Shown here: positions 32,764 through 64,000 of the stretch, in pieces
Position numbering within the stretch: position 1 is the first letter of the stretch
Layout of the letters: each line of letters starts with the position of its first letter
Origin: Trypanosoma brucei
Lineage: Eukaryota
Direction of reading: 5' to 3'
DNA: 64,000 nt
Assembly (NCBI GenBank): GCA_000002445.1
Contig: CM000207.1
Location: 2,176,001 to 2,240,000, forward strand
Notes under the pieces: model-generated
What the model was told of the DNA's origin: nothing
Databases searched by the model: none
Seen by the model: only the letters and a program-made list of their open reading frames with translations
Position numbers and translations under genes: made by a program

Positions 32764-32844
32764 CCTCAGACACCGAGAGAGTATGTACTCTGCCGAACAC
32801 CAAGAACGGTGTGATGAAGTAGAGTTAGAGTATAAACAAAGCAC

Positions 32845-38800: not shown

Positions 38801-39599
38801 CACAGCTGCTGTGTGCTGTGAGGTTGTGGCGTTAAAGCAAAGGAGATATATTGTGAAAATATTAAAGAAGGGTAACTCGGGGGCATTCAGCTGTAGCTGC
38901 ATACTCATCGGTACATTGCGATGGTGGCCGATGGCTTTGTTGGTAAGGGGAAGATATCACGAAGTTACGAAGAAAATTCTAAAAAGGCAAAAAGGAGAAA
39001 AGGGGAAAATTTTTTGCCACTGCGCCACGGCCGACGCAATGATATTACATGAAAGCCCACACCATTATTGCAAATGGGCAGCTCGTGGAGGGAGTGAGGA
39101 TTGGGATTATTCTAACAGCTTTGTGGTTGTGTGTGCCGTGCTTTTGGAAAATATTGCAACCAATGAAAGGGAAGGCGAGTGTCACCTTACTTTCCATGCT
39201 GCGACATCGACGCATCACGATTATATGCTAGTTGCCCTGCGAGGGAAGGTCGTGAAGGCGAAGGTTAGCTTCCGGTTTAAGGAAGTGTAGAGACTTCCTA
39301 ATACTACTGTCAGAAACTACTGTTGCCGCGTGCTTCAGGCACTGGGTCAGTAATTCATAAATACAACAACGAGAATAAAATTAATCCCTTGTGGCTGCTA
39401 AGCGTGCAAGCAACTGAGAATAATAAACAGTATATTTTTGCCACACTTTATTGATTTCTATATATATACAAAACAACCTCATTACATTTATCATTTCTTT
39501 TGTGCCCAAAGGCTGCTGAATGAATGTTAGGATTACTGACCATAACACATTTTGGCATGCACCTCAATTACTTCCTTATAACACTTCCCCCCCCCCCGT
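32845..39599. promoter_or_regulatory. Divergent strand-switch region between the minus-strand PTU (left) and the plus-strand PTU (right). Likely Pol II transcription start region.
   Basis: Gene orientation flips from minus (all genes below 32.8 kb) to plus (all genes above 39.6 kb). The 6.7-kb gap has no long ORF and carries A-runs, a RIME copy and a C11 polypyrimidine tract just upstream of the first plus-strand gene. Confidence 0.55.
37226..37729 (-). mobile_element. RIME non-autonomous retroposon (about 504 bp). Pr77-like 5' end CCCTGGCGATGCCGGCCACCTCAACGTGGTGCCAGGGTCCAGT, internal A8 at the midpoint, 3' poly(A)10.
   Basis: The minus-strand read starts CCCTGGCGATGCC at 37729, the hallmark ingi/RIME/L1Tc 5' signature. 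A8 lies at about 256 bp in (where ingi-specific sequence is inserted in full ingi). T10 on plus at 37226-37235 gives the poly(A) tail. The first 250 bp is about 85-90% identical to 51349-51595. Confidence 0.7.
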
Positions 39600-39674
39600 T
39601 TGATTCATCGCTTAGCTCTATTATTAAAAAAGAAAAAGCATTTCCTCAACACTCAGCACCTCAAGGAATCGGAA

Positions 39675-42600
39675 ATGGGAACTATAATGTCAGGAAACCA
39701 AGGAAGAAAGCGACAGCGCATCTCATCTCCTGAGCAGTCAGAAGCTTTAAAGGAACCATCAACTACTGAACAAAATAAACTCACCACCGTTACAATCACC
39801 GAAGAGACGCGTGACGCCAGTAATGATGAAACTGTGGTATCGTTACTGAATGAGCATGAGAAATTGACTAAACAAACGACACGGCTGGAAAGCAGTGTGA
39901 AGGCACTTAAGTGTTTCATGAGTAATCTCACAGCTATGAGTGGCGAAAGGCGAGGTGGTGTGTGTGATGACACCGAATGCATACGCGCGGTAACGTTATA
40001 TAATGCTGCTGATAATGCCTTCAGTGACGAAGGACTACATGAAGGTGCTCTTTCCTCACTCTGTGGCCGCATTCAAGCTAAGAAATTAACCATTGCGCTA
40101 TCAAAGGGTTGGAAATTTAACTCACAACGAGTCAGTAAGCTAAAGCAGTTAGAAGAGTTACGCATTGAATATCCGCGTGGCAAACCTGTGAATATGATAT
40201 CTTTGAAGAGACTGCACATGTTGAAAAGGCTTTATCTTAAGAGCAACAATGTTGACAACAATGGCGCTCGTCACTTATTCAATATTGGAACATTGGAGGA
40301 GTTGGTTATTGCTGACACCATGCAACTGACAAATATCAGAGGAATCTCTCGCTTGACTAACCTGATGTGTCTTGAGTTAAATTCCACAGATATTGATGAC
40401 AACTGTGTGGAGGAAATAAGTGCATGTGCTAAACTGTCCAAACTGAGTGTATCCGAATGCAACAATATCACGGATGCAACCCCAATTTCACAACTTGCAG
40501 CGCTTGAAGAGTTGAATCTAAACAGCTGTTACCACATAACGAAGGGAATAGGAACACTGGCCAGGTTGTTACGATTGCGTATGCTGGACTTGAGTAGTGT
40601 TCCTGTGGAAGATAATTGTCTGAAGGATTTGTGTGACTGTGGGTCTCTTGAAAAGCTGAACCTTTCTTATTGTATTCAGCTGACAGATATCAATCCACTC
40701 TCCAATGCCGCTGCTGTTGAGGAATTGAACCTTAACGGTTGTCGCCGAATAACGCGGGGGATGGGCGTTGTGTGGGTATTACCAAAGCTACGCGTATTGC
40801 ACATGAAGGACATGCACCTGAGCGAGCCATCTCTCGATTCAGTTGGGACTGGTGGATTACTTGTAAAGGTCAGTCTTGATAACTGCGCAGGCTTTGGTGA
40901 TATGACACTCTTATCCAGCATTGTTACACTCGAGGAGCTGAATATTCAAAAATGTGCTGACATCATTAGTGGTGTGGGTTGCCTTGGTACACTGCCATAC
41001 CTGCGTGTACTTAACATAAAGGAGGCACACATCTCGTCCCTTGACTTTACTGGTATTTGTGCCTCAAAATCCCTTTTACAGCTCAATATGGAGAGTATCA
41101 CGGGACTGAGTAATGTGGAAGCACTCGCCAACATTTTGACTCTGGAAAAACTAAGCCTTCACGGCTGCACGGGTATTGACGCAGGAATTGGATGTCTCGG
41201 AAACCCGCCACAGCTTAAAATGTTGGACCTGTCTGGCACAAATACCGACAATGAGTCTCTCAGAAGTTTATGCCTATCGCAGACAATGGTGTCCCTCAAC
41301 CTTTCCCATTGTTGGAAAATGACAAATGTGTCCCATATTTCAAGCCTCGAAGCATTGAATGAACTGAATCTGAGCAACTGTTTTGGAATAAATGCAGGAT
41401 GGGAAGCACTTGAAAAACTTCAGCAGCTACATGTGGCAATCCTCTCGAATACACATATTGCTGACGGAGACATATCCCATTTCAGCAAGTACCAAAACCT
41501 TGTTACGCTTGATCTTTCTTTCTGCGATAAGTTACTTGATGTTACAGCTCTCTCTAACATCACTACGCTTGAGGAGTTGAATCTTGATAGTTGTTCAAAC
41601 ATCAGAAAAGGGCTGAGCGTTCTTGGAGAGTTGCCACGGCTTTGTGTGTTGAACATAACGGGTGTGCACTTGAAAGATTCAGTTATTGGTTCACTAGGGA
41701 ATGGTAAATCACTTGTAAGGCTCAGTCTTGAGAATTGCAAAGGGTTTGGTGATGTCAAGACCCTCTTGAACCTTGTTACACTTGAGGAACTGAATCTCCA
41801 CTACTGTGACAAAGTAACCTCTGGAATGGGAACACTGGGCAGCCTACCGCAGCTTCGTGTACTGGATTTGGGACGGACACAAGCTGATAATAATTCCCTT
41901 GAGAATATCTGCACAAGCTCAATCCCACTTGTATCATTAAATCTTTCGCATTGCAAGAAAATAACATCTATTTCTGCAATAGCCTCCCTTACGGCATTGG
42001 AGGAACTCAACATTGACAACTGCTGTAATGTAACATCCGGTTGGAATGTATTTGGTACACTTCACCAACTGCGTGTCCGTACTGTCAAATACACGCATTA
42101 ATGATGAAAACATACGGCATGTTAGCGAGTGCAAGTCTTTGAATACACTCAACCTTGCGTTTTGCAAAGATATAACGAATATCACAGCACTTTCTAAAAT
42201 TACTATGCTGGAGGAGTTGAACCTTGATTGTTGCCCTAACATCATAAAAAGTATTGAAACTCTTGGAACGCTTCCCAAGGCACGTATCCTAAGCATGAGG
42301 GAATGTCAAATTGGAGACAGTGATGCACAACAATGTTCCATCCTTGGGAATAGTAAGTCACTTGTGAAACTGAATCTTGAGAGGTCAAGGGGGCGCATAT
42401 CTGTGAAAGTTCTGTCTAACGTTGCAACGTTGGAGGAATTGGTACTTGATCATTTACAGGAAGTATGTTGCATACCGTCATTTTCCTGTCTACCGCATCT
42501 TCGAGTACTGAATCTGAAATATACGGATATCAATGGTGATGTAACTAAAAATATTTCCGATTCGAAATCGCTGCAGTCACTCAACTTATCACATTGCAAA

Positions 42601-43872
42601 TGGGTAACTGATATATCAGTATTATCTTCCTTATCGACACTGGAAGAACTGAATATTAGCGAGTGTGAGCAAATACGAAAAGGCTGGGAGTCGCTCGGAA
42701 AGCTGCCTCTACTACGTGTGGCAATTCTATCTGATACTAAAATCACCGCTAAAGATATAGTTTGCCTTAGCAGTTGCAAAACACTTGTGAAACTAAAGTT
42801 TTTCCGGTGTGAGGAGTTGTCAGATGTTACGGTGGTGTATAAAATTCAATCACTGGAGGAGCTGATAGTTAAGAACTGCTCAGACGGCCTCAAGGGACTG
42901 AATGCTCCTGGTACACTCCCACGGTTGCGTTTTTTTGCTTCTGCGAAATGTGAGAGGTAGTGATATATCTGTTGAATCTATCGGGACGAGCAAATCTCTC
43001 GTGAGGCTTACTATTGAAGTGGGCGAGGACTTAACAGACACAACACCCCTCTCAGATATCACATCCCTTGAGGAATTATCATTGCGGGAATGCGGTGATA
43101 ACCTGGGAGGAGTCGGGACACTTGAGAAACTGCCACGGCTTAAATCGCTGGATCTGGGTTTATCTGATATTAGCAATAGCACACTTAATGATATTTGTCT
43201 GTCTCGATCCATTACGTCACTCAACCTATCCAACAATTATGAACTAACAGACATATCTCATATATCAAACCTTACGGCACTGGAGGAATTGAATCTGAGA
43301 GGATGTTACCACATAACTTCAGGCTGGGAAGCACTTAGCGAATTACCACGACTTCGTGTGCTCAACTTGGTATCCGTCAGAGTTACGACGCGTTACGATG
43401 GATATTATATCAGCAGATGCAAATCCCTCGTCACACTCAACCTTGAATCGTGTGATATGACCGATGCTTCATGTCTTGCTAATATCAAGACACTGGAGGA
43501 GTTGCATATAGGGAAATGCGAGATGTAACGCAGGGGTTTAGTGCACTTTTCACTCTTCCGAGGTTACGCATTCTTGACCTGATTATGTCGCGCATTACAG
43601 ATGAAGATCTCATGGAAATGCAGCTATCCCATACCATTGAGGAGCTCAATCTCTCTTATTGTGAAAATCTTAATGATATTACACCACTTGGGAGAATAAA
43701 ATCTATTAAAAACTTACATTTCCTTTTGAGCTATGATGCCAGAAGGCTCAGAGAAGAAGGATTCAGAAGTCTTTTGGAATTGCCATGTCTTTCTTGGGTG
43801 GGGGTCAAAAATGCTTATGTCAGTTCCGATATCCTGCGTGAACTGAGAAAAAGGAGGTTACATATCCATTAA
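39675..43872 (+). pseudogene. Leucine-rich repeat protein (LRRP, ESAG8-related LRR family without RING) of about 1,400 codons, disrupted by three frameshifts
   Basis: Four consecutive overlapping ORFs (39600-42101, 42046-42960, 42902-43528, 43516-43872) all carry the same roughly 24-aa LRR (L..L..LEELNL..C..IT.G...L..LP.LRVL.L). The repeat phase continues across each junction only after a frame change: a 4-bp insertion near 42075, a T7 homopolymer at 42930-42936, and a 1-bp change near 43522. Start placed at ATG 39675 (MGTIMSG). Confidence 0.7.
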
Positions 43873-47716: not shown

Positions 47717-49549
47717 ATGGTGTGGAAGGGTCAAGCCAAGGGAAAACAACAAAATAACGGAAAGAATATTCTGAAGGGAAAACGGAGACTGTTGGCGACA
47801 GGACCTCAACAGGAGCCAGAAGTAAACACTCCAACGGTCAACGCAAACAGTAACGTAATGAAATCACTTCGTAAGCGAGATCGACCGACGGAAGAACTGC
47901 AGCAGGTGGGGGACGTTTCTGTAGGGGCAACCGAAGCTTCCAGTGTCCTCAATAATGCTGAAAGGGAAAGGAAGGATACAAGTGCCGCAGACGGTGATAC
48001 AACTCATCCTAATTTATTGAGCGATGGCCAGGAGGTTTCACTCAAAGGCACCAAAGTTGATAAAAATACCTTGCAACCGCTCCAAGCATCTGTTACCCTA
48101 CGGAAACTGAGTGTTACGGTGAAGGAGGAAGATGTCGATGTGCAGCAGCTGACCTCACTGAAAATGCTAAAGGATTTGTGTATCGAATACGTGAGCGGTA
48201 AAATACTGAACGTGACTTCTCTGAAGGAATTGTCCCATATGGAAAGGCTTTGTTTCAAAGGAAGTTGCATTGAGGAATTGGAGGAACTTACGTTGAATGG
48301 ATGCGAAGAGCTGAAAAAAATTGAGGGGATACACCTTCTGCCGAACCTCACGATTCTCAACTTGGGGAGGACATCAACAAATGACGATTTCTTGAAGGAA
48401 CTTTCCGTATGCAAGAAACTATCAAAGTTGACACTATCTGGGTGCCCAGGATTGGAGAATGTCGAACAGCTGTCAAATTTTGCAACACTAAAGGAGTTGA
48501 GTCTTTCATGGTGCAGTAATATTATACATGGGTGGGAAGGCATTGGCCAACTTCCACAGCTCCGAGTTCTTCATTTGGAAGGGAACAAAATCACTAACAG
48601 AACACTTGAGCCAATCTCGAAGTCGAAGTCACTTGTATCACTAGATGTCTCCTTCTGTGAGAAATTAACTGACGCCACTCCACTCTGCCGTGTTAAAACT
48701 CTGGAAGAGCTGAATCTTCACGCCACTAAAATAACTTCTGGTATCGACAATCTGGTACTACTCCCGCGACTCCGTGTGCTGGATGTGAGGCAATTACAAC
48801 TCAGCGCCTTCGATACCATTCTCAGTACTTTTGCTGCCGTACGTTATGGCATTCGTCTTTCTTCATTTTGCAACGGTTTCGATATCCAATCTATTTCTTC
48901 CATTCAAACGCTTGAGGAATTGAGTGTGGGGGGGTTTTTCTGCGCCGCAATCCAATTCGGCAGTATTGGGGGACTTCCACGCCTTCGAGTACTAAGGTTA
49001 TCGAGCAAAACGATGTTTGACGAGTCACTTAAAGGAATAAGTCACTCGCGCTCATTGGTGGCATTTGATCTCTCAGGGTGCTCCTGCCTCGAAGACATTT
49101 CCTCTATATCAGGAATAAAGACATTGGAAGCGTTGAGTCTTAGAGATTGTACGAATGTATCAGATGGTTGGATTGCACTTGGGGAGTTACCACTGCTGCG
49201 CATCCTTGATCTATCATGTACGAAAATTCAAGATGTGATGCTTCGAGTGTTGTTCCCTAAGTTGAAACTAGACTGTCTGAGTCTTGCTGGATGCGAAAAC
49301 ATAACTCATATAGGGCCTTTAATTAACGTAAAATCACTCAAAAATTTGGTGCTGGAGGAATGTTCCGAGCTGAAAGCGGGGTTTGAGGCACTACTGGAGC
49401 TGCCCTTGCTCACATGGGTCGATCTATGCTATGTTAACGACAACAAAACGGTGAAAGACACATTGGTTGCGAGAGGGGTGGATATGAGAAGTGTATGGTC
49501 TATCATTGGAAATTGTACCTCATTATTTGATTGGTGGAGAGCTAAATAA
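47717..49549 (+). CDS. Leucine-rich repeat protein (LRRP family), 610 aa, intact
   Basis: Uninterrupted ORF with the same cysteine-containing roughly 24-aa LRR as the upstream LRRP (LEELNL..T.I..G...L.LLPRLRVLDL). N-terminal basic region. Confidence 0.75.
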   Translation: MVWKGQAKGKQQNNGKNILKGKRRLLATGPQQEPEVNTPTVNANSNVMKSLRKRDRPTEELQQVGDVSVGATEASSVLNNAERERKDTSAADGDTTHPNLLSDGQEVSLKGTKVDKNTLQPLQASVTLRKLSVTVKEEDVDVQQLTSLKMLKDLCIEYVSGKILNVTSLKELSHMERLCFKGSCIEELEELTLNGCEELKKIEGIHLLPNLTILNLGRTSTNDDFLKELSVCKKLSKLTLSGCPGLENVEQLSNFATLKELSLSWCSNIIHGWEGIGQLPQLRVLHLEGNKITNRTLEPISKSKSLVSLDVSFCEKLTDATPLCRVKTLEELNLHATKITSGIDNLVLLPRLRVLDVRQLQLSAFDTILSTFAAVRYGIRLSSFCNGFDIQSISSIQTLEELSVGGFFCAAIQFGSIGGLPRLRVLRLSSKTMFDESLKGISHSRSLVAFDLSGCSCLEDISSISGIKTLEALSLRDCTNVSDGWIALGELPLLRILDLSCTKIQDVMLRVLFPKLKLDCLSLAGCENITHIGPLINVKSLKNLVLEECSELKAGFEALLELPLLTWVDLCYVNDNKTVKDTLVARGVDMRSVWSIIGNCTSLFDWWRAK

Positions 49550-51348
49550 TCTATCATATGAGGTTTCAGGAGAACATCACTTCTGCCGCATCGTTAGAAT
49601 TAGGGCACCTAATCAAGTGATGGGTGAATCCAGGGGCACGCAGCGTCATGCGCAACATATCAATATTAGCAATGAAAGTGACGCCGATATCTGTGGTTAA
49701 GAAGCGTGGCACACTGCATGTTTCCCTTTTCAGAAAATAGTAAAATATCATCCCTATCATACGAGTGAGAACATGACGGGAATATCTCTTTCCGAAAAAT
49801 AAATATTCAACCCCCTCATCTAATTTTTTCATGATTCGTCCCTATTCGTAATATGACCCTGCAGAAGCAGGAATACATTAACGCAACACGTTTTGGGGCC
49901 TTTATTTTTCAAAAGCTCATGGCTACGCTCTCTGCATACGTTATTTACCTAAGTATATGTTATTTTGTCTGTATTTTACTGGAGCCCACTGCTACTTCAA
50001 AGGGCGCAGTTACACTAACCCCTTGCACAGCAAAGTGGTGTGTACCGTATTAACTCAACAACATCCATATCAAATATACACGAGTGTGTAGTAACGCTCT
50101 ATTGGTTTTGGGAACTATTATTTTATTTCTTACAATATGATGCCTCAGAGAAACTGAAGGCGAGGGCAGATCCTTTAATCCATCATATTTTCCGTTTTAT
50201 ATCGTATCCATATATGTTTATGACTTTCCCGTAGGTAGTTCCAAGGTACATTATGTATTCTTTCATTTAAAGAATCATTCCTTTCTTTCATATTTGCTTC
50301 TTATTTGACAACAATGAGCAAAAGGTTTTTCTCTCTGACGTTTACATTAATTTAGACACTGCTGTTAGCTGATAAGTTACAGAAAGCCGTACATTTAAAG
50401 TTACACGAACTCACACCGGTCCGAAATAGTAAAGTCTCTAGTATTATTACTTGTTTCTTTATTTGAGAAAAATACGAAAAGCAGCGTCGTGTCTGAAGTG
50501 AGAAACATGTGGCATACATGTGAGATCGGAGGACCACTGCCATTTGAATATCATATCCCAAAATTCTTTTGCTAACATTATTAACTCTGAATGCCTACGA
50601 GATTGTGAAGTGAGCGACCACTGACAGTGAAAACACGAGGATGTATTGTTATCGCCCATGAAAGACACTAGCGCTATTTTGCTTATTGAAAAGCAGAAGC
50701 TCTTTATAATGCCTTTAATCGGCTTGACACAGCAGGTATCACATTTGAAGGAGCAATGAACAAACCGTTACCACACGGAGATATTTTCGTTTACTGATCA
50801 AAAGGTACTCCCGCGACGCATTATTTTTGGTTTACACAACAAGAAGTGCTGTGGCATATGCAACTACTTACTTTTTGCGAGGTTATGTGAGTATATTTTG
50901 GTGACGTATGTAATTTCAATCCGCAGCTGATGTTGCAATGCAGTAATTATCAATGAGGTCTGTCAAGTGGATTCCAAATGGTGAAGCTGTGAGTGAGGAC
51001 GAAGGACTTATTGTCTGCCTCTGAACCGTACACTGCCAAGCACAATTGAATTAGTTTATCATACGACTTTGAAGAATTGCACAAAGTTTCTGGAGCGCAC
51101 TGGAGGCCTCAAGACATTAGCTCTCACGCCTGAAATGAACCGACCCTACTTAAGGTTTAACGGTACGAAACATAATGACATCCTCATGTGGACAGAGGAC
51201 TGGAGAGAGTGGAATGTCTCGAGAAGAGGGCTCTGTACTTGACAGACCCAATGGGATGGAAGAATGGAGGCCGAGCCAGGCCCCTACATTGCGATTGGGA
51301 GCTCTGGTATAGGTAAGTTGCTATCCATTGGTTCGCTTCTCCTTCATA

Positions 51349-51595
51349 CTCTGGCCACGCTGGCCACCTCAACGTGGTGTCAGAGTCCAGTACCCCGTAT
51401 CATCGGGGGAAGCCGAGAGCCAGCAGCGTTCTTCTCATGGGGAACATTGCTGTGCTCCGTCTATGGCATCATACAGCACAGGGATCAGCAGCGTCTTGCT
51501 GGGAAACCGTTTTTCATTTGTCGGTCCCTGGGCACGTGCCATCAGCAGTATCACCCGCACTAACATACTGCTCTGCGGTAATGTAGAGGAGATTT
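51349..51595 (+). mobile_element. 5' half of a RIME/ingi-type retroposon (about 250 bp). No ingi ORF follows, so truncated or degenerate (DIRE-like).
   Basis: CTCTGGCCACGCTGGCCACCTCAACGTGGTGTCAGAGTCCAGTACCCCGTATCATCGGGGGAAGCC... aligns with the 5' half of the RIME at 37226-37729 for about 250 bp, then diverges. The ORFs at 51264-51624 are translation artefacts of this element. Confidence 0.55.
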
Positions 51596-54565
51596 GCGGG
51601 CCGCCGTTATGCGTGACGGGGTGAAACTACGGTGGGTTCTCACTGGGAAAAACTTTGTCCACTGGATATCGCTGTATGGTTATCTGTTCGTGAGTTTTTC
51701 TTAGCTATAACCGATTTTCTCGGCGGCAGCTGACCGATAATGCGGATGTACAATGCTTGAGATAAATTGTTTGATGGAAGGGACATTTAGTAACTAGATG
51801 TGATATCACAGCGAATTTTCGTTTTTTTCGATATCACCCACTGAACGGGTCCCTTGAATTGCTAATGGTGAGCAACGTTGAACTATCGAATAGCACGGCA
51901 TCGGTCATGTAAATGGGTTGAGGAGAAAGTGCTTCATCGTGCGCACGGGAAAACGCAACCATGTTATTTGGCGTTCGTTGCAACTGATGCTTTCGGTATC
52001 TGGAGAGTAAACCTGATGGATAGGCAGCTGCCCTCCGGGAAGAATGATTGTGGCGGAATTCCCGCTGACTTACCACTTTGTAGAAAGAGTGCCCCAAGAA
52101 GGAAGTTTTTTCCTTATCACGCGCATTCAACTGAAGTAACTGTCAGCGTAGACTGGGTATAGAGTGACCTGAAGCCCCGGGCAATGGCAGTGCGCAATGG
52201 TTCTTTTCCAGGTAAGACATTAGACAAGATTTTTTATCAGACGCAAACGAGGCTACGGTAACCTCCACCGGAGCCACGTACCCCCAGCTGAAATGAACAC
52301 GAACACAAATCCTCCACCATGCCCGAATGGCAGGCACGAAGGCGGTGCGATTTCCGACGTACACATCGAACCGTCTTCGTGCCTACCATTCGGCGCGGTG
52401 GGTGGAGACGGGAGTTCGACCGTTGCGAGACGCATTTAGATGTGTAGAAGCTGTTGCCTTTTCCAGTGGCAGAGTTACCAGAGGGCATGGCTTTCGCTTA
52501 AGCAAGTATTCAGTCCGCCTTTTAGGGGTTCCAATCGCTTGGTATGGCGCGGTCGCTGGGGTAAGTGAGGACAGCATGGGGACAGAAGTTTCTTCCTCAA
52601 GCTTCGCTCCAAGTAGCCCCACATAGTTATGGTCCTCGGCACCTCGTTGCGTTTGGGACGCCACAAAAGTGGGGTAATGAGGAGCATGGAAGAGCGACAC
52701 GCTGATAGTTTTGGAGTTCGGCAGTGGGTTTCCAGCATCCAAACACCACTCGTGAGGAAGGCAAAAGGGGTAGCTACTGCGACGCTAAGCTGGAGGTTAT
52801 GTTGTCAACATTGACCACCGGAACGTTGAAGTGCGAGGCTGCAACACCCGATGACGAAGAAGAAATGCGCATACCCCAAACGTGCGGAACGCCTCTTCTT
52901 CCCTACACCGTGGTCGGATGCGAGTCGCTTGCCTTAGGGGCCTTCGCAGACTTTTTTGCGACATATCATCTGCGTTGAGAAATAGTGGTGCGCGAGCGGA
53001 TGAAAGGAGTGCGAGCCCAAGTACGGAAACAGTGTCATTGAGCGCGGGTTTTACACTAGCTGGCATCCTAAAGGAGGGCTCCTACGTACCTGGTTAAGCT
53101 AGCCTATGATGAATGTATACGAAAAAAGTTAATGCTTTACTGTGTGGAAGTTCCTCCCTTTTGTAACCGTTGCATCGCTCCGCTCCACCACCCTTTTGTT
53201 GTGCGCGTCCGTGTCAAAACCTGTTTAGCAATGACTACATCCACTCAGCGCCTGAGTGGTGAGGGGCTCTGACTGCAAGCGACCAAGCAATCGAATCCAA
53301 CTGTTTGCCATTAGGCAATACAACGTGATTAATCATCTGTGATTGGTGACCAGTGGTAGGGTGCCGTCATTTTCCTTCTTTAGGCGGTCTCAAGTACACG
53401 CTTAGTGATTCGGCTGCCAGCAACATTGTTAGAACCTCTTTTTAGAGTCGGTGTTCCCATTCCAAAAAGCGTGGCGTGGCAGCTAGCGTGTACGATGCCC
53501 CGCTTACTCCCGTGGAACTGGGAGTACAAACGGGCATTTATCTGCGGAGGGAAACAGGTATTGTCATCAGAATAGCAATACCAACGGCTCTTCATTTGTG
53601 TCAACGGGTGCTGCCTAACCGGCACCTCTTCGTTATCGTCTACTGAAGCGTTCGCGTGGTTTCCTTTCCGGTGCAAAATTGATTTTAGTGACAGGAAGCG
53701 TTTTCCTTCTGAGACATCGGGAACCAAATCCCTATTAAGGCAAGGCGGCGCTGACAACAAGCGCGGCTAAAGTTGCAGTTGAGAACGTCTGCATGAAGAA
53801 GGGCTGCGAGTGCACAGTGGTTCCACGCTCGGCAACGGCGATTTATGAGCCGCGCGGACGCCCAGGCGATTCATCAAGTATATCGCAACTATTTGGGGCA
53901 CCTCTAACCCCAGCGAAAAGGCAACTAAAGCTCCGCTGTTTACACAACCGAGCCTAAACGTCGGTCACCCACCACAGATTAGTAATACCCCACCGAAAGA
54001 AGCTGACAGTAACTTCAAATATAAGATATCTTCTTAGGGGTGTCTCTCCCTGTCTTACTTTCTCCCTGTTTATAGGTTTTCATCCGTTAGGTGGTTGGTT
54101 AGAGTGAAATACACGTATTTCCTGTGGACGACGCCTGGCCGTTGGTGCCGTTCCAGTTTGGTTGTGGATGCATACGAGTACTTCCGCTCGCCCGTACATA
54201 TTTTTCTAGTAATAACCGAATGACTATGCTCCGCCAATCTGTCGTTGTCGGATTGATCCTGTTACCTCCCGCGAAGTAGCGGATTGTGGGGAGCAAACAG
54301 AAGAAACAGGCACCGATGTTGTGCATGACGATGATTTGTGATGAGCGCCACTGACCGTTTGTTTCTCCGCAAAAACGACGAATACGATATCGTTTTGTTG
54401 GAATCGAAATCTGCTTTTGGGGACGTGGATACCAGAGATCTGACGTTGACAAACCTTACCAGTGGTAGGAGAGTGTCTAAACTATCGGTAAACAGGTAAA
54501 AGCCAGACATCATGCTGCATGCAAAAAAAAAAATCCCTACGTAGTCACTAGAGCGGCACGGGATC

Positions 54566-55181
54566 CGTTTTATATCTCCTTTTAATACTTTTTGACGTAA
54601 AATGAGACACCTTTCCCTTAACTCGATGAGGGGAAGCTTATTGCGAAAGAGGAAGAAAACTTTGAGACTCTAATAACACAGAAAAGTCAACACTTAATGA
54701 GTATCTGAGGGACGAGTAATAGTCGAAAAAAGATTTTTTTGCTTTGCTTTATTCACATGATTCCCCCCTCAAAAAAAAATAATACCTTATTCAGGGACTT
54801 GGTACTTGCTTGCAATTTAATTTAAGTATTTTGTTTGTTCTTAGCGACTTATCCCGTAAGGGAAGACGCTACTTCAAGTTGGGTGCTCCACACGAATTCC
54901 GAAACGCTAACACAGTGTCGGCAAACTGCGGCAGTTTGTGCATTTCGTTGGAAGAGAGGAAATTCGTCAAAGTTTTAACACCTTGATTGTGCGCGTGAAA
55001 GAGTCGTTGCGAGGGGGAAAATACGGTATCCCCACACACACACCAAAAAACAGTAAGGAAAAAAAAAAAAGAAACATCCCATAAAACATTCTTTTTCTCT
55101 TTCTTACAACTCAAAGTAGACACAGAGCATTTGTCAAAGACATATTCAAACAAGCTAGCATACGATTTCTGCTCTGGAGGG
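54566..55181 (+). repeat. Direct repeat copy 1 (about 615 bp) flanking the oxygenase gene
   Basis: About 98% identical to 57124-57735. Both copies end at CTCTGGAGGG and contain an A-run and CACACACACACC. Confidence 0.85.
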
Positions 55182-55515
55182 CGCATTTGGCTCACTTATT
55201 AAATCCATAGAAGCACTGATACAAGAACGTTATCTAACGCGTCTCAGGTGCGAAAGCACACTGCCTCGACATTTTCGTAGTAAGATCGAGGGGAATTACC
55301 GCTACTGCAGGGTTGAAAAGGCACCCTTCCGCGTAAACGGTGGCAAAAGGGAAGTCAGCACCGTGCGGACACGTCTAAGGCTGGAGTGGTAAGCAATTCA
55401 CGTAAGTGGAAGTTCGTCACATAGGATCGAACAAGGTACGAAGGCCGAACCAACTGGACATACGGGTGCGCATCATCCGGTAAGATACTTACAAGCCAGG
55501 GAGACAGCGAAGAAA

Positions 55516-56499
55516 ATGTATTCTGCTACGCCGTTCATGACACCGCGTGCTTCGTTGCCGGTAATCGATGTCTCGCCATTGTTTGGGGGCGCGGAGCAGG
55601 AGATCATGAAGGTTGCCAAGCAGTTGGATCACGCGTGCCGCACTTCAGGATTCCTCTATGTCGTTGGTCACCCTATTAAACAAGAGCAGATCGATAGGGT
55701 ATTGCAAATTTCGAAAACTTTCTTTTCCCTTCCAATGGAAGAGAAGATGAAAATTGATGTCAAGAAGGGTTTCCTAAAATACAGAGGATATGTCCCCTTC
55801 GGAGCTGAGGAACCAGAGCATGCCAAAACCTACTCATATGAGGCGTTCAACATGGGATATCACCTGCCCCTACACCATCCTGAAGTCATGGCACGGGCCC
55901 CCCTACGCGGACCAAATGTGCACCCCACACAAGTTCCGGAGTGGGTAGACATCATGGAAACCTATTTCCGCGATATGTGGGCATTCATGCTCGTTCTACT
56001 TCGTGCCATGGCGCGAGGTATTGGAATACGTGAAGATTTCTTCGACGACAAGTTCAGCGTACCACAATGTGAGCTAACTGTCAAGCATTATCCCGAACCA
56101 AAAACACACGCGAATGGTAACACTCTGCGGATGGAGCACTCTGATTACGGGATTATCACTATTCTCTACCAAGATTCCACGGGAGGATTGCAGGTCCGTA
56201 ATCCTGACGACAAACTCGTTGATGTTCCACCCATTGAAGGAAGCTTTGTCGTCAACATTGGGGATATGATGGAGATGTGGACTAATGGGCGGTATCGTTC
56301 AACCAAGCACTGCGTTGTGTCCAGAGGAAAGGAACGGTACTCCATACCTTTCTTCTGTAACCCGAATCCGAACGCTTTGGTTAAATGTCTCGACAATTGC
56401 TACTCGGACACTAATCCACCGAAATACCCACCAGTCAAAGCTTCTGACTGGTTGCTGAAAAGATTGGCGGATCTCTATTCTTACAAATCGAAAATGTAA
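55516..56499 (+). CDS. 2-oxoglutarate/Fe(II)-dependent oxygenase of the iron/ascorbate oxidoreductase (isopenicillin-N-synthase-like) family, 327 aa
   Basis: Facial triad HSDYG (H-x-D) ... RYRSTKHCVV (distal His). RYSIPFF (2OG-binding RxS). N-terminal DIOX_N-like region. Length is typical of IPNS-like dioxygenases. Confidence 0.8.
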   Translation: MYSATPFMTPRASLPVIDVSPLFGGAEQEIMKVAKQLDHACRTSGFLYVVGHPIKQEQIDRVLQISKTFFSLPMEEKMKIDVKKGFLKYRGYVPFGAEEPEHAKTYSYEAFNMGYHLPLHHPEVMARAPLRGPNVHPTQVPEWVDIMETYFRDMWAFMLVLLRAMARGIGIREDFFDDKFSVPQCELTVKHYPEPKTHANGNTLRMEHSDYGIITILYQDSTGGLQVRNPDDKLVDVPPIEGSFVVNIGDMMEMWTNGRYRSTKHCVVSRGKERYSIPFFCNPNPNALVKCLDNCYSDTNPPKYPPVKASDWLLKRLADLYSYKSKM

Positions 56500-57123
56500 G
56501 TACACCAGAGCCAAAATGACTGCCCTGTTAGTGGTGGGGCGTCCGCTCTTTATCTTGTCTCATGGCTGGAGAGAAGGAACCACCATTATATACCTGCCGC
56601 CCTCCCTCTTCACTTCCGGCATTTGCATCATCAGCACGACGCGATTGGACAACGCCGAAACCCCTGTAAAAACTAGGTTGACTCGAACCCGCTACGCTTC
56701 CGAGGCTCGACAGGGAAATGGTGGAAATCAAGAGCCCCCGCGAAACCGAAGACCTAGCTGGTGTTGGCCTGTTCAAGAAAGTCGGTTTGAGGGTGCTGAT
56801 AAAGAAAATATAATGAAACTACTGCCAAAAAACTGGGTGAAGCATAGCGGATGACAGTAATCGAAATAGAAAATTTTCTTGGCTAAAGATGGGCGTTGAA
56901 GAATATGCCACATGCCAGGAAAAATAACAATCTGAAGGGTGAATTATCCAATATTGTGTAACATCCCTGGAAATGGTCACGAAAAAAGCCAAATGAATAT
57001 GTGGTTATATTTTAATAAAACCCACGGTTTCAGAAAACACAGATAAGAACCGAATGTAGTAAAACAAAGATACTCCAAAATAGGGAAACAAGAGGAAAAA
57101 CAATCAAATAATCCATTTGTCTG

Positions 57124-57735
57124 TTTTTATATCTCCTTTTAATACTTTTGACGTAAAATGAGACACCTTTCCCTTAACTCGATGAGGGGAAGCTTATTGC
57201 GAAAGAGGAAGAAAACTTTGAAACTCTAATAACACAGAAAAGTCAACACTTAATGAGTATCTGAGGGACGAGTAATAGTCGAAAAAAGATTTTTTTGCTT
57301 TGCTTTATTCACATGATTCCCCCCTCAAAAAAAATAATACCTTATTCAGGGACTTGGTACTTGCTTGCAATTTAATTTAAGTATTTTGTTTGTTCTTAGC
57401 GACTTATCCCGTAAGGGAAGACGCTACTTCAAGTTGGGTGCTCCACACGAATTCCGAAACGCTAACACAGTGTCGGCAAACTGCGGCAGTTTGTGCATTT
57501 CATTGGAAGAGAGGAAATTCGTCAAAGTTTTAACACCTTGATTGTGCGCGTGAAAGAGTCGTTGCGAGGGGGAAAATACGGTATCCCCACACACACACAC
57601 CAAAAAACAGTAAGGAAAAAAAAAGAAACATCCCATAAAACATTCTTTTTCTCTTTCTTACAACTCAAAGTAGACACAGAATATTTGTCAAAGACATATT
57701 CAAACAAGCTAGCATACGATTTCTGCTCTGGAGGG
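57124..57735 (+). repeat. Direct repeat copy 2 (about 612 bp)
   Basis: Near-identical to 54566-55181. Spacing of 2,558 bp suggests a remnant tandem gene-unit duplication. Confidence 0.85.
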
Positions 57736-60249
57736 ATTGTTACAGTTGTGCGGCGAAGGAGGGACGACGCCGTAGACTGAACTGTTGGCGGAAATGCACC
57801 GTTGGATTATTTGGGGTTGAAGAGGGCTCTACCGAAGTGTGACGGAGGAAAAAAGCTCACTCTGTTTCACACAGTTGTCGGGGAGCGTGCCCTGACGACG
57901 TCACACGGCGGGGGCAGAGACGGCGAAGGAATTTGCTGCTGCTTACTCATGGAAGGTGTGGCATGCATATGCTCGATAAGGGAGCTGTGCGAATAGCGGT
58001 AGGTCACAGCGCCTGCAGTTACAATTCGGGAGATTCCACAATACTTCTGCGTGGGCCGAACTGAAGATATTTTCTGACGACGCCGGTCACAAACGTGGCG
58101 TCACAGTTCCGCGCCGGTGGTGTGTGTGGGGCGCTGCGAACCAGCATATGGTTTAGTATATGAAACTGGATGGGCGGACAGCCGTCGAGCACCGGGGGGA
58201 AGGGGGGAGGGCGCTGCAGATTCATTAGTTCTCGAGTCGGCGAGTATCCATGTGCCCCGTTGTTGTCGACGGTGAAAGGTACCGCCAAAAGGAAAGAATG
58301 GTAATGTTTGAGGATTTGTAAGCTGAGGTTTGCACTTTGCATTTCAGGCACTGCAGTGGTACTCGCGGGTTGATATGTCGCGGCATTCATCCACTATGCC
58401 AGGAGGAAGCGATACGGAGGCTAGACAGCTCCGTTTCTTATTCGGGTGTTTTTCCTCTGATATTAATATTGATTCATGTGTGCTACAGTACCCGGAATCC
58501 TTGGGTCAGGAATCTGCAGCGTTTCAGTATCCCCTGTTGGTATAGATTCAGACGCTTCAGTCCATTACATTCCATTCCACCTCAGTAACTAAATGCAAAC
58601 TTCATCCTGGTACACACTTTCTCCCCTGTACTTGTGTGAGAAGCGCCCATAGCTTATTTGGTTGTTGGTCTGCTACGGTGAGATGGGTCTACTTCCGATG
58701 CCATGAAGGGAAACAGTGAGTCGGTGATTATCAAGAGTGTAGTCGATAAAGTTGCATACGCTGGGAGAGCATACAGTGTCATTTCCACATTAATTTCTAG
58801 TGCCATGGATTCTGTTGCCACTGCGTACTAATGGGGCTGCACGTGCCTACTCGACGACTATCAGTTTATTATTTTTGCATATTGTCGTAACGGCCCCATA
58901 TTTTCCTAACAATAGAAATCTCTTGGTCCATCATCCGTGGTACATGCGTGGGGTCATAAATTTGGTGAATGTCAGTGTCTGCATCTTTCGCGCATACAGT
59001 GGCTCCTAAATCCGCTCCACGGTCGGTATTCCACAGTGAGTGTATTAACGCGCTACCGCCTGCACAGTTGCAGGCTGTCCGGCGTCGGTAGCGGCTGCCA
59101 ACGCTGAGATATTCTACTTGCGCAATTGTTACTCTAGCCCAAACGTGGGCGCAGGGTATCACAATCACAGATGCGAGTGCTTCACAGAGCGGACCAGTGG
59201 TCTTTTCCTGTGGAACGTGGTTAAACTCCATTGATAACCCAGTGTTAGAACTTTTATGGGGCTCTTTACATGAGGGGACAGAAGTGTTTTTTTTTTTGTG
59301 CGGCCGATCATGGTACTATGCGTTCCTGAAAATCGGAAAATGCATAACGGTGTGTCGGAAAGACGCAACTATTCCCCGTGGAATATGGTATCCTTGGCGG
59401 AAAGCCCAAAACGGTTTTCTTCCAGAAATCGCTGCTGCTTGATGATACCCCCTTAACATTAGAGAATATGGAAATCATATGAAGATGTTCTTCTGATCGA
59501 CGTGGTGAGGTTGTGAAAGAGCGGTAAAACTTGTGTGGAAGTCTCAAAGCGAACGTGAATGCAGCAAAAGAAGTGGTGCGATTCACCACTCTTAGCCTTT
59601 GTGCAGGATGACGCATATCTTCCTGCTTCCTAGCTGTGCAACTCATGGAAGTGCTTTCCTCAGTGTGGAAGCTTATATACCTCTTGTGACAAGTCATAAA
59701 AAAAATTTAAAGTGAATCCTCAACAACAATTAAGAAAAAATAAAGCATTTATTTACACGGAGTGATTTGAAGACCAGTATCATGCACACTGTGTGTCGTC
59801 GAGGGTAAATAACCAATTTAAAAGATTCGCGCCGCGTTCGGTTTCCTCGTAACATTTATCACCCCCCAGCACGTAATGACATTTCTCAGGAACGGGGCTC
59901 ATTACGTCCCTTCCAGCTTTATAAGCAACTACGTTTCATTACCGATAACATTATCCCAAGGGGAGAGCCACCAACAATAAGAGCTTATCCACACAAAAAG
60001 TGAACAAAGATTACCTACGCAACACCGCGTCCCATGGGCTGTTAACAAGCCCTGTTCTCTACCACCATCATGCACAAAGGGCATCATTCACTATCATCCC
60101 TAACTTACCTAGGGTAGGAGCGCTCCTTCGGTATTCCTCCGCCCACCTCGATACAGCGTAAATTCACTACCCCCTCAAACCAAACTTCTGCAACAACACA
60201 CTCTACATTTCTCCTACAACCTCATGATTAGATTCATGCCTTTGCATGT

Positions 60250-60261
60250 TAAAAAAAAAAA
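60250..60261 (+). other. A12 tract, probable 3' poly(A) of a retroposed or retroelement-derived insertion abutting the SL gene fragment
   Basis: aaaaaaaaaaaa immediately followed by SL exon nucleotides 15-39. Confidence 0.5.
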
Positions 60262-60306
60262 TTAGAACAGTTTCTGTACTATATTGGTATGAGAAGCTCC
60301 CAGTAG
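60262..60306 (+). pseudogene. SL RNA: Spliced-leader (SL) RNA gene fragment: mini-exon nt 15-39 plus the first 20 nt of the SL intron. Truncated at both ends.
   Basis: TTAGAACAGTTTCTGTACTATATTG|GTATGAGAAGCTCCCAGTAG matches the T. brucei SL 3' portion and splice-donor/intron start exactly. The first 14 nt (AACTAACGCTATTA) are replaced by poly(A). Similarity stops after intron nt 20. Confidence 0.7.
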
Positions 60307-60688
60307 GAATTATCCGTACTTGGGGTCAATATTCGGGAAGAGGAAGAAGTAAGAAATCGCTGCATTTATGATATCGATAGGAAAGGAAGGAAAACCTCAA
60401 AACCAAAAAAAGTCTTGTTTTGGGGGTTCGAACCCGGACCTCCAAAACACAAACACAATTAGAAGAGGAGTGTTGCCAGTTGGGCTATTTCGACAAATCG
60501 GAGGAAAAATTGAAAATTTATGCCCAGATGAAATATACCAAATCGTACACATCGAAGAGAAAAAACATAGGTGTACAAACGGTGCACACGTAGAAAAAAG
60601 TAGCGGAATTGATAAATCTCAGGTAAATAAGCCCATTACAGAAATCAGGTGATCAGTTTCTTTCTTGGGACAGAATATCGGGAGGTTT

Positions 60689-63600
60689 GATGTCAAAAAG
60701 TCACCCGAAAATGAATATTTGGAAAAAATCAACTGTGGTCAAATCGACATAACGACCACAAAAAATTGTCGCTACGAAGACTTCCGTAGCGCATTTGAAA
60801 GGGCTCGACCAGCCCAATGCATGAGTAACAACGGTTACTGCAACAAAGAGGTCGCCAAAAAATTAGGTGCAGTCGAACCTAATATTTTTTCAAAAAATGG
60901 AAATTTTGAAAAAATTAACCGTGGTCAAATCGACATGACGACCACAAAAAATTGTCGCTACGAAGACTTCCGTAGCGCATTTGAAAGGGCTCGACCAGCC
61001 CAATGCATGAGTAACAACGGTTACTGCAACAAAGAGGTCATAAGAAAAATAGGGGCGGTTGGAAAAGAAAAATGCTCAAAAAATAAGGAAAAAGAGCAAA
61101 TTTCGCAGGCCGACAAAAATGATACACATGGTTTCTACGCAGACTTCCGTAGCGCATTTACACGGAATGGACGAGTAGAATTAGGCAATAACAACGGTTA
61201 TTGTCATAACGAAGCGACAAGAAATATAGAGAGGGGGAAAAAGCCGAAAACATCAAAAATTGATGAAAAAAGGCAAATTTCCAACATTGCAGCTGGTCGA
61301 AAAAGTGATCACTACGAAGATCCGAGTAGTGCATTTTCACGAATTTCAATAGACCATTGCAATGCTCAAATAAAAATTGGTCGCAAAAAAATGGTTAGAA
61401 ACTTGAGGTCATCTGAATCTCAAAAAATTTCAAGGTTCCCAAGGCACCATGGGGAAGGAAAAAAGGTGTCTCCTCCGGCTTTGAACCTGCAGTGGCCAGG
61501 ACAGAAGCAGGTAGCGTCGGCAGTTGCGCCACAAATTAGAAAAATCGCGACACCGAAAAACAACAACACAAGCATCCAACGGAACTGTAGGAAACACCTT
61601 AGGAAAGAAGGTGATTGGTGGATAGTAGAGGGCGGGCAAAGCCACAAGAAAGCCGCCCATACCCCTCTCAAAACGAAACCGGTAAATAAGGAGGGGAACC
61701 GGAAGAAGTACGGCAGACCACCGCGTGAGGTAGAAGGGAAATGGCTTACCTCCCTCATTGCGGCAACGACTGAGGCCGTATTACGCCAACTGGGGAAAGG
61801 AAAATCCCCAACAGCCCACACGAAGTCGAACCAGAGTAGAGTCCCGCTGCAGCACTCTGAGAAAACGGCTAAGGGCATCAAACACGCGACGCCCCAACCA
61901 AAAAAGAAAGAACATGAGCAGCGGAAAGAGCTCCCCCGTCGGCCCCCAACCAAGAGGAGCCACGGCGCTAACAAAGGGCAGGGAGCACCAGTAAGAGCCC
62001 CTACGAAGACACAAGGGAAGGGGGAAGAACAACCCCACACAATGCGAACATGGGCACAGGTGGCAGCACCGAGGAAACCAAAGGTGACAAGTAAACCACC
62101 CATGGCTCAAAAAAAGGCACAGGGGGAAAAGAAAGGGGCAGCGGCCAACCCCTTCCACTGGGAGCTACAGGTGGAGCAGCTTCTCAAGGATGCGGAACAG
62201 ATACGCGAAAGCATGTACATCCGCTTTCTCCACGTTCGGCAGAGTTGGTGGAGCACATGCTTCAAGGCCCACATGGAGTTCCACTGCCCAGTGTGTGGTT
62301 TCGCGCACCCGGAAGAAACCATAACAGTAACACACTGCAGGCAGCAACACCCCCAGGAGGGCCGCCTGATTCCCTACACCCTGACAACAACAGGGAATCA
62401 GGTGCAGTTCGCAGGTCCCTCCTGCTCACTTTCGGCGGTGGTGGCTATCCTCTCACATATGGAGGAAGAGAAAAATTTCCACCCTATTATCCGCCGAAGC
62501 TACCAGTCCCCGAGCAAGGAGACTACCCAAACGCTCGTTCAGGCATTGGGACTGGAGCTCCCCACAGCCCCCATCACTGCGATAGAAGCGCTGGCCCACC
62601 ATGACCAGATGATCCGCCAGCTGTTGGAGGCACCCGCAACGACGGCACGACAATGCGGGCATTGTGGGGTAAGTGAGCTAATGGAAGGGCCTTCCAACCC
62701 CGGGGAAAATTTGGGGATAATCTCCATAAACCCCAACACATGCGAGTCGATCGAGCTGACGAATCAGATCCTCGCGAAGACATATACGACCTCCTGGACA
62801 GATATGGAGGTCGTATGCACGGGGGAACGGAAGAATATGGCCCACCGGCCTACCCCGACGTTGATCACCCACTCCAAGACGTTCGGGGAAATGGTGGTCA
62901 TCGATATTGGAACGTGGGGGAACGAAGCGGTGGGTTTGAAACGCATCCTCCACGAGATCCTGTTACCCCACGGGAACGGCACGGCAACATACAAACTCGT
63001 GGGCGCCGTGATCGCACCAACACCGTTCCACGTGGTAGCGGCAATACCTCAACAGACCAGGAAACGTCGCTGGGATATCCTGGATGGTATGGTCCGCCGC
63101 ACCGTGAGCCAGAGCACTGTCGACCCAAAAACTGTGGTCATGTGCGTGTACCGTCGTGAAGAAGAAGAAACATACGACGTACTAGACGAGGAGGAGCAAG
63201 ACGACGACCTCCTCGGTATCCCCAACCCCACGCCACGGCGATTGATGATATCACAAGCCGGTCCACAGCAAAACTCATGGGTGGACACACGGGGCAGGAG
63301 GGCATACGGCTCACAGGAGGAACAGGATGAGAGGACATCGACAGATCAGGTGAGTATTTTCTCCCACGACGAAACACGGGAGTTATCATCACCACTGGAG
63401 TGTCCTATCGTAGGATGCACCGCGAGTTTCGTGGGCCCACGCAGATGGGAGAAGGCCAAATCCCATATATACGGGTTCCACTCGCTGGAAGAGGTCCGCG
63501 AAATCCCGAGGGGGGAGCTTATATGTAAGGGGATAGTAAGATGCGAGACTTGTGCCACGCTCCTCCCTACGTCGGACAGAGCGAAACAGGCACACGCCGA

Positions 63601-64000
63601 CGATTGCAGACCCTATCTCCCGCGGAAAGAAAACATCCGCCGAAAACGGGCCGCTGAAAGAGAAGCGACAGAGGCGAGCGCACAGCAAGGAATAGCGCTA
63701 CGCCTCGAGCGGCAGGGCCCGTACATAACTCCCCGCGACATAGAGGAGCCCACCAACACGACGACGGAAAGTTGGTGGAGGGAGAAGGTAGCTACGAAAC
63801 GCTACCTTCACAGAAAGGAGTGGCCGCAGTGGCTTGACATCTGCCGCACGGTCCTCCTCGGATACTCCGCGTCATCACAAGGCGAGCGGCACCAACGCCA
63901 AGTGATGCTCCTTGATCTGGTCCGGAATCATCTCCACACGCGCACAGCCAGGCGCGAGCAACAGCAGCAACGTGGAAAGGATAACCAGGAAGAGGAGGAC
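60689..64000 (+). CDS. Partial (3' end beyond window) long ORF. N-terminal tandem repeats of about 57 aa, a K/R/P-rich basic linker, and a C-terminal region with C2H2-like Cys/His motifs. Candidate retroelement (SLACS/CRE-clade-like) or novel zinc-finger protein.
   Basis: I walked frame 2 by hand from a stop at 60650-60652 to the window end (64000) without meeting a stop, giving at least 1,116 codons. The ORF track does not list it because it has no terminating stop inside the window. Motifs: FHCPVCGFAHPEETITVTHCRQQH, ECPIVGCTASFVGPRRWEKAKSHIYGFH, ICKGIVRCETCATLLPTSDRAKQAHADDC. The coding strand is strongly purine-rich and T-poor. Confidence 0.45.
60721..61380 (+). repeat. Tandem repeat array with a unit of about 172 bp: two near-perfect copies and two degenerate partial copies
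   Basis: GTGGTCAAATCGACAT(A/G)ACGACCACAAAAAATTGTCGCTACGAAGACTTCCGTAGCGCATTTGAAAGGGCTCGACCAGCCCAATGCATGAGTAACAACGGTTACTGCAACAAAGAGGTC occurs at 60737 and 60909. Diverged copies at about 61130 and 61304. Confidence 0.85.

Follow-up and report, generated by a model that had tools for sequence, protein, structure and literature searches.

In Leishmania, single-strand annealing between direct repeats removes the genes that lie between them (PMC6706467), and Rad51-dependent formation of circles at direct repeats has also been described (PMC4357719). In Trypanosoma brucei, the IAO/adenosine-transporter array of chromosome 2 (Tb927.2.6180-.6310) holds the closest paralogues of the gene considered here, and its copy number differs among strains (PMC2854126, PMC4288722). 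The chromosome 9 gene itself, Tb927.9.14600, was reported by Jackson et al. 2010 as the sole TREU927 coding sequence missing in T. b. gambiense; T. b. gambiense DAL972 lacks it, as do 9 of the 11 other T. b. brucei strains, so that with TREU927 included 3 of 12 T. b. brucei strains carry it (PMC2854126). It is also missing in T. evansi STIB805 and, apparently, in Lister 427 (PMC4288722). Carnes et al. 2015 (S5 Fig) already remarked on the direct repeat that flanks Tb927.9.14600 and, according to the legend of that figure, a T. evansi contig spans the gene-less allele with two overlapping regions of homology, so that the repeat is retained (PMC4288722). The locus, its variable gene presence, and its flanking repeat were thus already known, which a preliminary description of this DNA overlooked, and because the presence/absence of the gene and the repeat are both in print, no new biology comes from the present scan. 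What it adds are base-level repeat boundaries, four substitutions diagnostic of the two repeat copies, candidate splice and poly(A) signals within the repeat, a peroxisomal targeting signal (PTS1)-like -SKM tail, a possible start at Met8, and signs of relaxed or shifted constraint on the protein, all of which may serve tests of loss versus gain or characterization of the enzyme.

Identity and anatomy of the locus

The window, i.e., the whole 64-kb stretch of DNA that was analyzed, corresponds approximately to Tb927_09_v4 2,176,001-2,240,000, and its oxygenase gene is Tb927.9.14600 (Tb09.211.4990) of T. brucei brucei TREU927 chromosome 9. Searching with the protein, as the preliminary description had proposed, returned 100% identity to TREU927 XP_827640.1 (EAN77310.1, Q38D10). 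The gene coordinates agree as well [Tb927_09_v4:2231516-2232499(+)], and the protein, its length, and the neighbors all match the published locus with no sequence difference. At 90% clustering the protein is a singleton. The features of the locus are as follows, in window coordinates.

54567-55181, + strand: R_A, upstream direct-repeat copy, 615 nt, 98.2% identical to R_B
54828-54844: second T-rich tract with AG, in R_A, read from the sequence
55089-55116, + strand: polypyrimidine tract of 17 nt (55089-55105) and first downstream AG (55115-55116), in R_A, read from the sequence
55182-55515, + strand: unique 5′ flank, 334 nt, part of U, without similarity to the sequence after R_B
55516-56499, + strand: coding sequence of Tb927.9.14600, a 327-residue Fe(II)/2-oxoglutarate (2OG) oxygenase; intact open reading frame (ORF) with domain and identity matches
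56500-57122, + strand: unique 3′ flank, 623 nt, which presumably makes up most of the 3′ untranslated region (UTR) and ends without a poly(A) tract
57123-57735, + strand: R_B, downstream direct-repeat copy, 611 to 613 nt, starting at 57123 or 57125 depending on the alignment of a T run
57643-57659 and 57669-57670, + strand: polypyrimidine tract and AG in R_B, the same as in R_A

A repeat search, MAFFT, and blastn agree on one pair of direct repeats, which are 98.2% identical over 616 columns (E = 0) and whose starts lie 2,554 to 2,557 bp (about 2,556 bp) apart, as expected from the earlier claim that 98%-identical repeats of about 610 bp surround the gene. R_A and R_B differ at eight positions overall, i.e., four length changes in homopolymer or CA runs and four substitutions (54666, 54947, 55127, and 55128; 0.65% of about 612 nt), each of which has G or C in R_A and A or T in R_B. 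The edges of the homology are abrupt, beginning at 54567 in R_A and stopping at 57735 in R_B, and neither MAFFT nor base-level comparison found similarity between the outer flanks of the two copies. No third copy of R was detected by blastn within the window, nor were inverted repeats found in 52-60 kb. The resulting layout, L - R_A - U - R_B - D, amounts to 1.24 units of a 2,556-bp tandem repeat, each unit consisting of the 0.6-kb intergenic module R and the 1.94-kb gene segment U, and according to the published comparison of alleles, U is found only in the gene-bearing one (Carnes 2015, PMC4288722). No second oxygenase copy or fragment was found in the window by tblastn, in agreement with the preliminary view that the sequence past the second repeat is unrelated and that a second gene unit is missing.

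With LRRP genes on one side and the SLACS/spliced-leader RNA array on the other, Tb927.9.14600 comes last among the protein-coding genes in a short transcription unit on the + strand. LRR ORFs lie upstream, at 39.6-49.5 kb of the window, and from 60653 onward there is a SLACS ORF, accompanied by 186-bp tandem repeats, that matches part of T. b. gambiense SLACS at 91-97% identity. The 3′ part of a spliced-leader gene at 60262-60300 is what lies beyond the SLACS insertion site on its 3′ side; no intact spliced-leader gene is present in the window. A six-frame Pfam scan of 57736-60300 returned nothing, neither a nucleoside transporter nor a second oxygenase remnant, selected ORFs in L and D had no domain match, and scans of the whole window with Rfam gathering cut-offs and for tRNAs gave 0 matches. 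Thirteen stop-to-stop ORFs over R, the junctions, the flanks within U, L, and D, among them those at 54869-55195 (- strand) and 57493-57780 (+ strand), were searched as a concatenated query for "hypothetical" proteins annotated in other strains; they had no match and were considered spurious.

Because the sole polypyrimidine/AG signals upstream of the gene sit in R_A, with no comparable pyrimidine tract from 55182 to the ATG, R probably supplies the trans-splice acceptor of the oxygenase and directs its polyadenylation. The 17-nt tract of R_A and the AG that follows it would be the acceptor of the oxygenase mRNA, implying a 5′ UTR of about 399 nt. The equivalent signals in R_B would direct polyadenylation of this mRNA together with trans-splicing of whatever lies downstream. 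Tb09.211.4990 has no entry in the available portion of the spliced-leader-trapping supplements.

The oxygenase and its paralogues

The intact ORF at 55516-56499 encodes a protein matching DIOX_N (1.4e-31, 110 bits; Pfam cut-off, 27.3) and 2OG-FeII_Oxy (1.7e-27, 96.1 bits; cut-off, 23), the two models on which the preliminary assignment had been staked, both well above their cut-offs. Its ligand residues fall in conserved columns, as had been claimed for the HxD...H and RxS motifs: among 18 kinetoplastid and bacterial homologues, H208, D210, H265, and R274 show no variation and S276 almost none. Judging from these residues, the product looks like a catalytically competent Fe(II)/2OG-dependent oxygenase. 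Bacterial and fungal IPNS-family 2OG oxygenases belong to the same fold family by sequence, and matches to known structures (PDB 9ovh, E = 5.7e-62; 6jyv, 1.2e-51; thymine dioxygenase 5c3p, 1.6e-44) span about 285 residues of the chromosome 9 protein, including the metal and 2OG ligands; a substrate is not transferable from these three entries. T. cruzi homologues carry the name "thymine-7-hydroxylase" as an annotation label only.

In a phylogenetic analysis, the chromosome 9 protein was placed as sister to the chromosome 2 clade (100/100 bootstrap), with about 65% identity and a Kimura distance of 0.47; Jackson 2010 gives 80% for the same paralogues, against the value of about 65% computed here (PMC2854126). 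Both share the domain pair and the catalytic residues. By this measure the chromosome 9 gene lineage is old, while R_A and R_B are nearly identical. Since the two lineages split, otherwise invariant positions have changed eight times in the chromosome 9 protein, including R266C, which adjoins the distal histidine, and twice in the chromosome 2 proteins, showing signs of relaxed or shifted constraint on the former. In addition, Met8 of the chromosome 9 protein aligns with Met1 of all paralogues.

The consensus of the C-terminal PTS1 tripeptide is [SAC][KRH][LM]. The chromosome 9 protein ends in -SKM, which fits this consensus, and because of this PTS1-like end the protein is probably glycosomal. 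The chromosome 2 array proteins end in -SKM or -PKM, four of them sharing the -SKM of the chromosome 9 protein, and a putative PTS1 was noted in these paralogues by Carnes 2015 (PMC4288722).

Loss, gain, and other histories of the gene

The flanking repeats are likely the recombination substrates behind the difference in gene presence between strains. With direct repeats of about 612 bp and 98.2% identity bracketing a variable segment, the locus has the makeup of repeat-flanked kinetoplastid loci that can be deleted or amplified, and the published population absence data lend weight to the recent duplication or deletion dynamics that had been suggested for it. We consider it probable that R-U-R is the remnant of a tandem duplication, that recombination at R deletes the gene, and that R carries RNA-processing signals. 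An old, divergent paralogue of the chromosome 2 oxygenase array would have been tandemly duplicated at the chromosome 9 site, and R-U-R would be what remained after the distal part of the array disappeared. The two R copies would recombine, homologously or by single-strand annealing, and so loop out one R together with U, yielding a solo-R, gene-less allele, which would be the predominant one in the T. brucei group. In the gene-bearing allele, the signals of R_A would serve as the splice acceptor of the oxygenase and those of R_B in the coupled polyadenylation; since R would hold these signals, a solo R would still process the polycistronic transcript normally and loss of the gene would leave its neighbors undisturbed.

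The earlier wording, "remnant of a tandem array," can be retained in part. The 1.24-unit geometry fits such an origin, which is plausible and unproven, and there is no array at present, because the locus has a single coding sequence where at least two head-to-tail copies would be needed. Moreover, R-U-R requires more than one simple tandem duplication: the distal unit must have been removed in a further step, and neither tblastn of the window nor the Pfam scan downstream of R_B found anything left of it.

We infer that the gene was lost from strains that lack it and not acquired by those that carry it. R-U-R in some strains and solo R in others are equally expected if solo R is ancestral and a circular U+R molecule integrated by a single crossover. 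Under such a gain, circular or linear U+R DNA would have entered the lineage of TREU927 and the two other gene-bearing strains, its donor having perhaps come out of another allele or array or arrived through a genetic cross. A recent integration would explain why only four substitutions separate about 612 nt of repeat despite the old gene lineage, most strains do not carry the gene (it is present in 3 of 12 T. b. brucei; PMC2854126), and circles at direct repeats are documented in Leishmania (PMC4357719). However, gene conversion between nearby repeats accounts for the high identity equally well, so that such low divergence between R_A and R_B, given how old the gene lineage is, can reflect a recent event as well as conversion that is still going on. 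A donor with homology to R must also itself derive from R-U-R or from an array, which only displaces the question of origin, U and R have no other copies within the window, and PCR and read mapping find the gene nowhere in negative strains (PMC2854126, PMC4288722). Taken together, we regard gain as rather unlikely. Quite unlikely, in our estimation, is that R-U-R acts as a reversible, recombination-driven cassette from which U+R leaves as circles that insert again at solo R; populations of T. brucei would in that case both gain and lose the oxygenase gene, TREU927 would possibly hold it as a hemizygous or balanced polymorphism, and African trypanosomes would have a Leishmania-like direct-repeat route of gene-content change.

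One unit plus a partial unit is also the typical appearance of a collapsed tandem array, and several near-identical 2,556-bp units could have been collapsed to 1.24, or the second repeat copy mis-assembled. Such an artefact is very unlikely. The eight differing positions show that R_A and R_B are not one sequence placed twice, and a T. evansi contig, assembled de novo and independently, matches both flanks, the two stretches of homology overlapping at the repeat (PMC4288722). Furthermore, two genome papers treat the chromosome 9 gene as single copy (PMC2854126, PMC4288722), and Tb927.9.14600 does not figure in Jackson's table of tandem arrays (PMC2854126).

Finally, direct repeats bracketing a variably present gene, 2.9 kb upstream of a SLACS retroelement, could recall the "mobilised cassette" of the preliminary description, with R as terminal repeats or a very long target duplication or with U as a retroposed mRNA, a reading that is extremely improbable and was rejected, together with chance, since the searches revealed neither inverted repeats nor a transposase, integrase, or reverse transcriptase domain in U or D, nor a short target-site duplication, nor further copies of R in 64 kb; since R, unlike an element-borne long terminal repeat, is native to the empty allele (PMC4288722); and since U begins CGCATTTGGCTC and finishes ...CCATTTGTCT, with neither a 5′ spliced-leader remnant nor a 3′ poly(A).

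Comparison with described systems

Compared with its closest paralogues, the chromosome 9 gene stands apart in organization and expression. The chromosome 2 array comprises five units of alternating oxygenase and nucleoside transporter genes, whereas the chromosome 9 gene is single and has no transporter remnant nearby. The chromosome 2 genes are up-regulated in bloodstream forms, while the chromosome 9 gene is not stage regulated, its expression level being similar in bloodstream and procyclic TREU927/4 (PMC2771046).

Compared with the Leishmania loci, R does not form a dispersed family of repeats inside the window, and the recombination mechanism is experimentally documented in Leishmania, whereas at the T. 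brucei locus it is only inferred from allele structures. The locus is a clean natural case in which a 0.6-kb direct repeat can toggle a gene in the strain gene content of T. brucei, and it resembles the Leishmania loci in that direct repeats of a few hundred base pairs flank the genes.

The repeat pair and the enclosed oxygenase gene

The chromosome 9 oxygenase gene (Tb927.9.14600/Tb09.211.4990) lies in a unique segment (U) between two direct repeats, R_A and R_B, which were delimited by repeat search, MAFFT, and blastn.

54567-55181, direct repeat, upstream copy (R_A)
55516-56499, plus strand, oxygenase ORF (327 aa)
57123/5-57735, direct repeat, downstream copy (R_B)

The two copies share 98.2% identity over 616 columns at a spacing of ~2,556 bp. 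The repeat search breaks the pair into four colinear blocks because of small indels; MAFFT and blastn return one single repeat. Base-by-base comparison revealed four substitutions (54666, 54947, 55127, and 55128, each time G/C in R_A), i.e., a substitution divergence of 0.65%, plus four homopolymer or CA runs of unequal length. These eight differences rule out a misassembly in which one sequence was placed twice; further near-identical units may have been collapsed in the assembly. According to MAFFT and the base-by-base comparison, homology stops sharply at either end of the repeat, and the sequence before R_A (L), the sequence after R_B (D), and U are mutually unrelated. Neither a third repeat copy (blastn) nor a second oxygenase fragment (tblastn) was found in the 64-kb window, and L-R_A-U-R_B-D represents 1.24 units of a 2,556-bp period.

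The preliminary description of a single IPNS-like oxygenase gene framed by 610-bp repeats was accurate, since the repeat pair, ORF, domains, and catalytic residues were all recovered. The predicted protein matches both DIOX_N and 2OG-FeII_Oxy with scores far over threshold, retains H208/D210/H265 and R274/S276 in an 18-sequence alignment, and has bacterial and fungal IPNS-family 2OG oxygenases as its closest solved structures. The “thymine-7-hydroxylase” and “ethylene-forming” labels carried by relatives are annotation only and are not transferable to it. Its C terminus, -SKM, is shared with four chromosome 2 paralogues and fits the PTS1 pattern, making a glycosomal location likely from sequence; a putative PTS1 in the chromosome 2 copies was remarked upon by Carnes et al. 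2015 (PMC4288722). The annotated Met1 gives 7-8 extra residues (MYSATPF; 55516-55539) missing from all 17 aligned homologues. As Met8 lines up with Met1 of every one of them, the true coding sequence may start at Met8 (55537).

Lineage, constraint, and published record

The protein is 100% identical to XP_827640.1/EAN77310.1/Q38D10, and the coordinates from Carnes et al. place the window at ~2,176,001-2,240,000 of chromosome 9. The locus, its strain-specific presence, and the flanking direct repeat have all been published previously, and the feature is thus a rediscovery. Tb09.211.4990 has its own section in Jackson et al. 2010 (PMC2854126) as the sole TREU927 coding sequence missing from T. 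b. gambiense DAL972, and T. evansi STIB805 also lacks the gene (Carnes et al. 2015, PMC4288722). The protein is alone in its 90% cluster; a 15-billion-protein collection contains the chromosome 2, 6, and 7 paralogues of T. b. gambiense, T. evansi, and T. equiperdum but no near-identical orthologue from any of the three. In TREU927/4, expression of the chromosome 9 gene is similar in cultured bloodstream and procyclic forms, whereas the chromosome 2 copies show bloodstream-form induction (Jensen et al. 2009, PMC2771046).

The protein is sister to the chromosome 2 array clade (100/100 bootstrap), yet its identity to that clade is only ~65% (Kimura distance, 0.47), against the 80% given by Jackson et al. 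2010 (PMC2854126). Judged from these alignments, the gene lineage is old. Among the 18 sequences, unique replacements at columns invariant in all the others are most numerous in the chromosome 9 protein (n = 6; A66S, D101E, G142E, Y151F, R266C, and M277I); R266C, at a position invariant in the other 17, directly follows the distal iron-binding His265. At positions invariant in 12 sequences outside both groups, 8 changes have accumulated on the chromosome 9 side since the split, versus 2 in the chromosome 2 clade. This pattern suggests relaxed or shifted constraint on a gene missing from most strains, although the ORF and all catalytic ligands remain intact despite the changes at conserved positions.

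RNA-processing signals and neighborhood

Upstream of the ATG, convincing polypyrimidine/AG signals are confined to R_A, where they comprise a 17-nt tract at 55089-55105 with an AG at 55115-55116 and a further tract and AG at 54828-54844. Since none occurs in the unique 334 nt from R_A to the ATG, we infer that the oxygenase mRNA would be trans-spliced within R_A; the available spliced-leader-trapping supplements list no splice-site entry for Tb09.211.4990. The same signals recur in R_B (57643-57670). Because polyadenylation is coupled to downstream trans-splicing in trypanosomes, we infer that they set the poly(A) site of this mRNA. A tandem-array unit normally has processing signals common to both its ends, and with such signals at both ends, deletion of the unit would be harmless to neighboring genes.

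The surrounding features are as follows.

Up to 32.1 kb, minus strand, genes including a USP7-like protease and a protein kinase
32127-38700, divergent strand-switch region, long ORFs all minus to the left and all plus to the right
38.7-49.5 kb, plus strand, DUF1181/LRR ORFs
38709-39287, plus strand, DUF1181 segment
39600-42101, 42046-42960, and 42902-43528, plus strand, three overlapping LRR ORFs
47717-49549, separate intact 610-aa LRR ORF
60653-64000, plus strand, open frame running off the window end, 91-97% identical to T. b. gambiense SLACS retrotransposable element (part)

GC content falls to ~0.42 in the strand-switch region. The 38709-43528 interval resembles a single large gene for a leucine-rich repeat protein, split by frameshifts, either a pseudogene or sequence errors. 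The 5 kb from the LRRP gene to R_A (49550-54566) has no long ORF and no Pfam match on the ORFs tried, and its GC content climbs to ~0.52 at 52-54 kb. The plus-strand unit carrying the oxygenase is very short, with LRRP genes and the oxygenase followed by the SLACS/spliced-leader array. Rfam and tRNA scans of the window gave zero matches, and short ORFs over the repeats, their junctions, L, or D had no protein match in a large database.

Downstream of R_B, at 60251-60300, an 11-nt poly(A) run directly adjoins spliced-leader RNA gene sequence beginning at nt 12 (TTAGAACAGTTTCTGTACTATATTG/GTATGAGAAGC...; also TTAGAACAGTTTCTGTACTATATTG/GTATGAGAAGCTCCCAGTAGG), the hallmark of SLACS insertion in a spliced-leader RNA gene. 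The site has the appearance of a SLACS-type retroelement's 3′ junction. The spliced leader's first 11 nt (AACGCTATTAT) are absent throughout the window. No reverse transcriptase or endonuclease domain was recognizable in the 2.5 kb upstream of the junction (57736-60250), and an element in that interval would have to be truncated or degenerate. The 5′ region of the 60653 open frame contains two 186-bp tandem repeats (60708-61084), which are read through in frame.

Origin of the repeat-gene-repeat arrangement

With L and D unrelated, the arrangement cannot be obtained from one tandem duplication. The most economical route would be duplication of the repeat plus U and subsequent deletion of everything from the distal U onward. 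One repeat and U would then be looped out by recombination between R_A and R_B, leaving the solo repeat of gene-less strains; 600 bp at 98% identity is an ample substrate for such recombination. The “deletion dynamics” proposed in the preliminary description proved right in substance, as the gene is absent from other strains and the repeat is present in the empty allele. Given an old gene lineage but only 0.65% substitutions between R_A and R_B, either gene conversion has kept the repeats alike or the present arrangement is young.

Loss is the probable direction of change. Gain, through integration of a circle of U plus one repeat at a solo repeat, would give the same arrangement and is rather unlikely. 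A transposon or retrogene was rejected: inverted repeats were not found, U and D lack mobility genes, the ends of U retain neither spliced-leader nor poly(A) sequence, and the repeat is native to the empty allele.

The proposed loss by recombination between R_A and R_B has precedents in Leishmania, a relative of T. brucei in which both direct-repeat deletion and circle formation are documented: single-strand annealing (SSA) between direct repeats removes intervening genes (PMC6706467), and Rad51-dependent circles form at direct repeats (PMC4357719).
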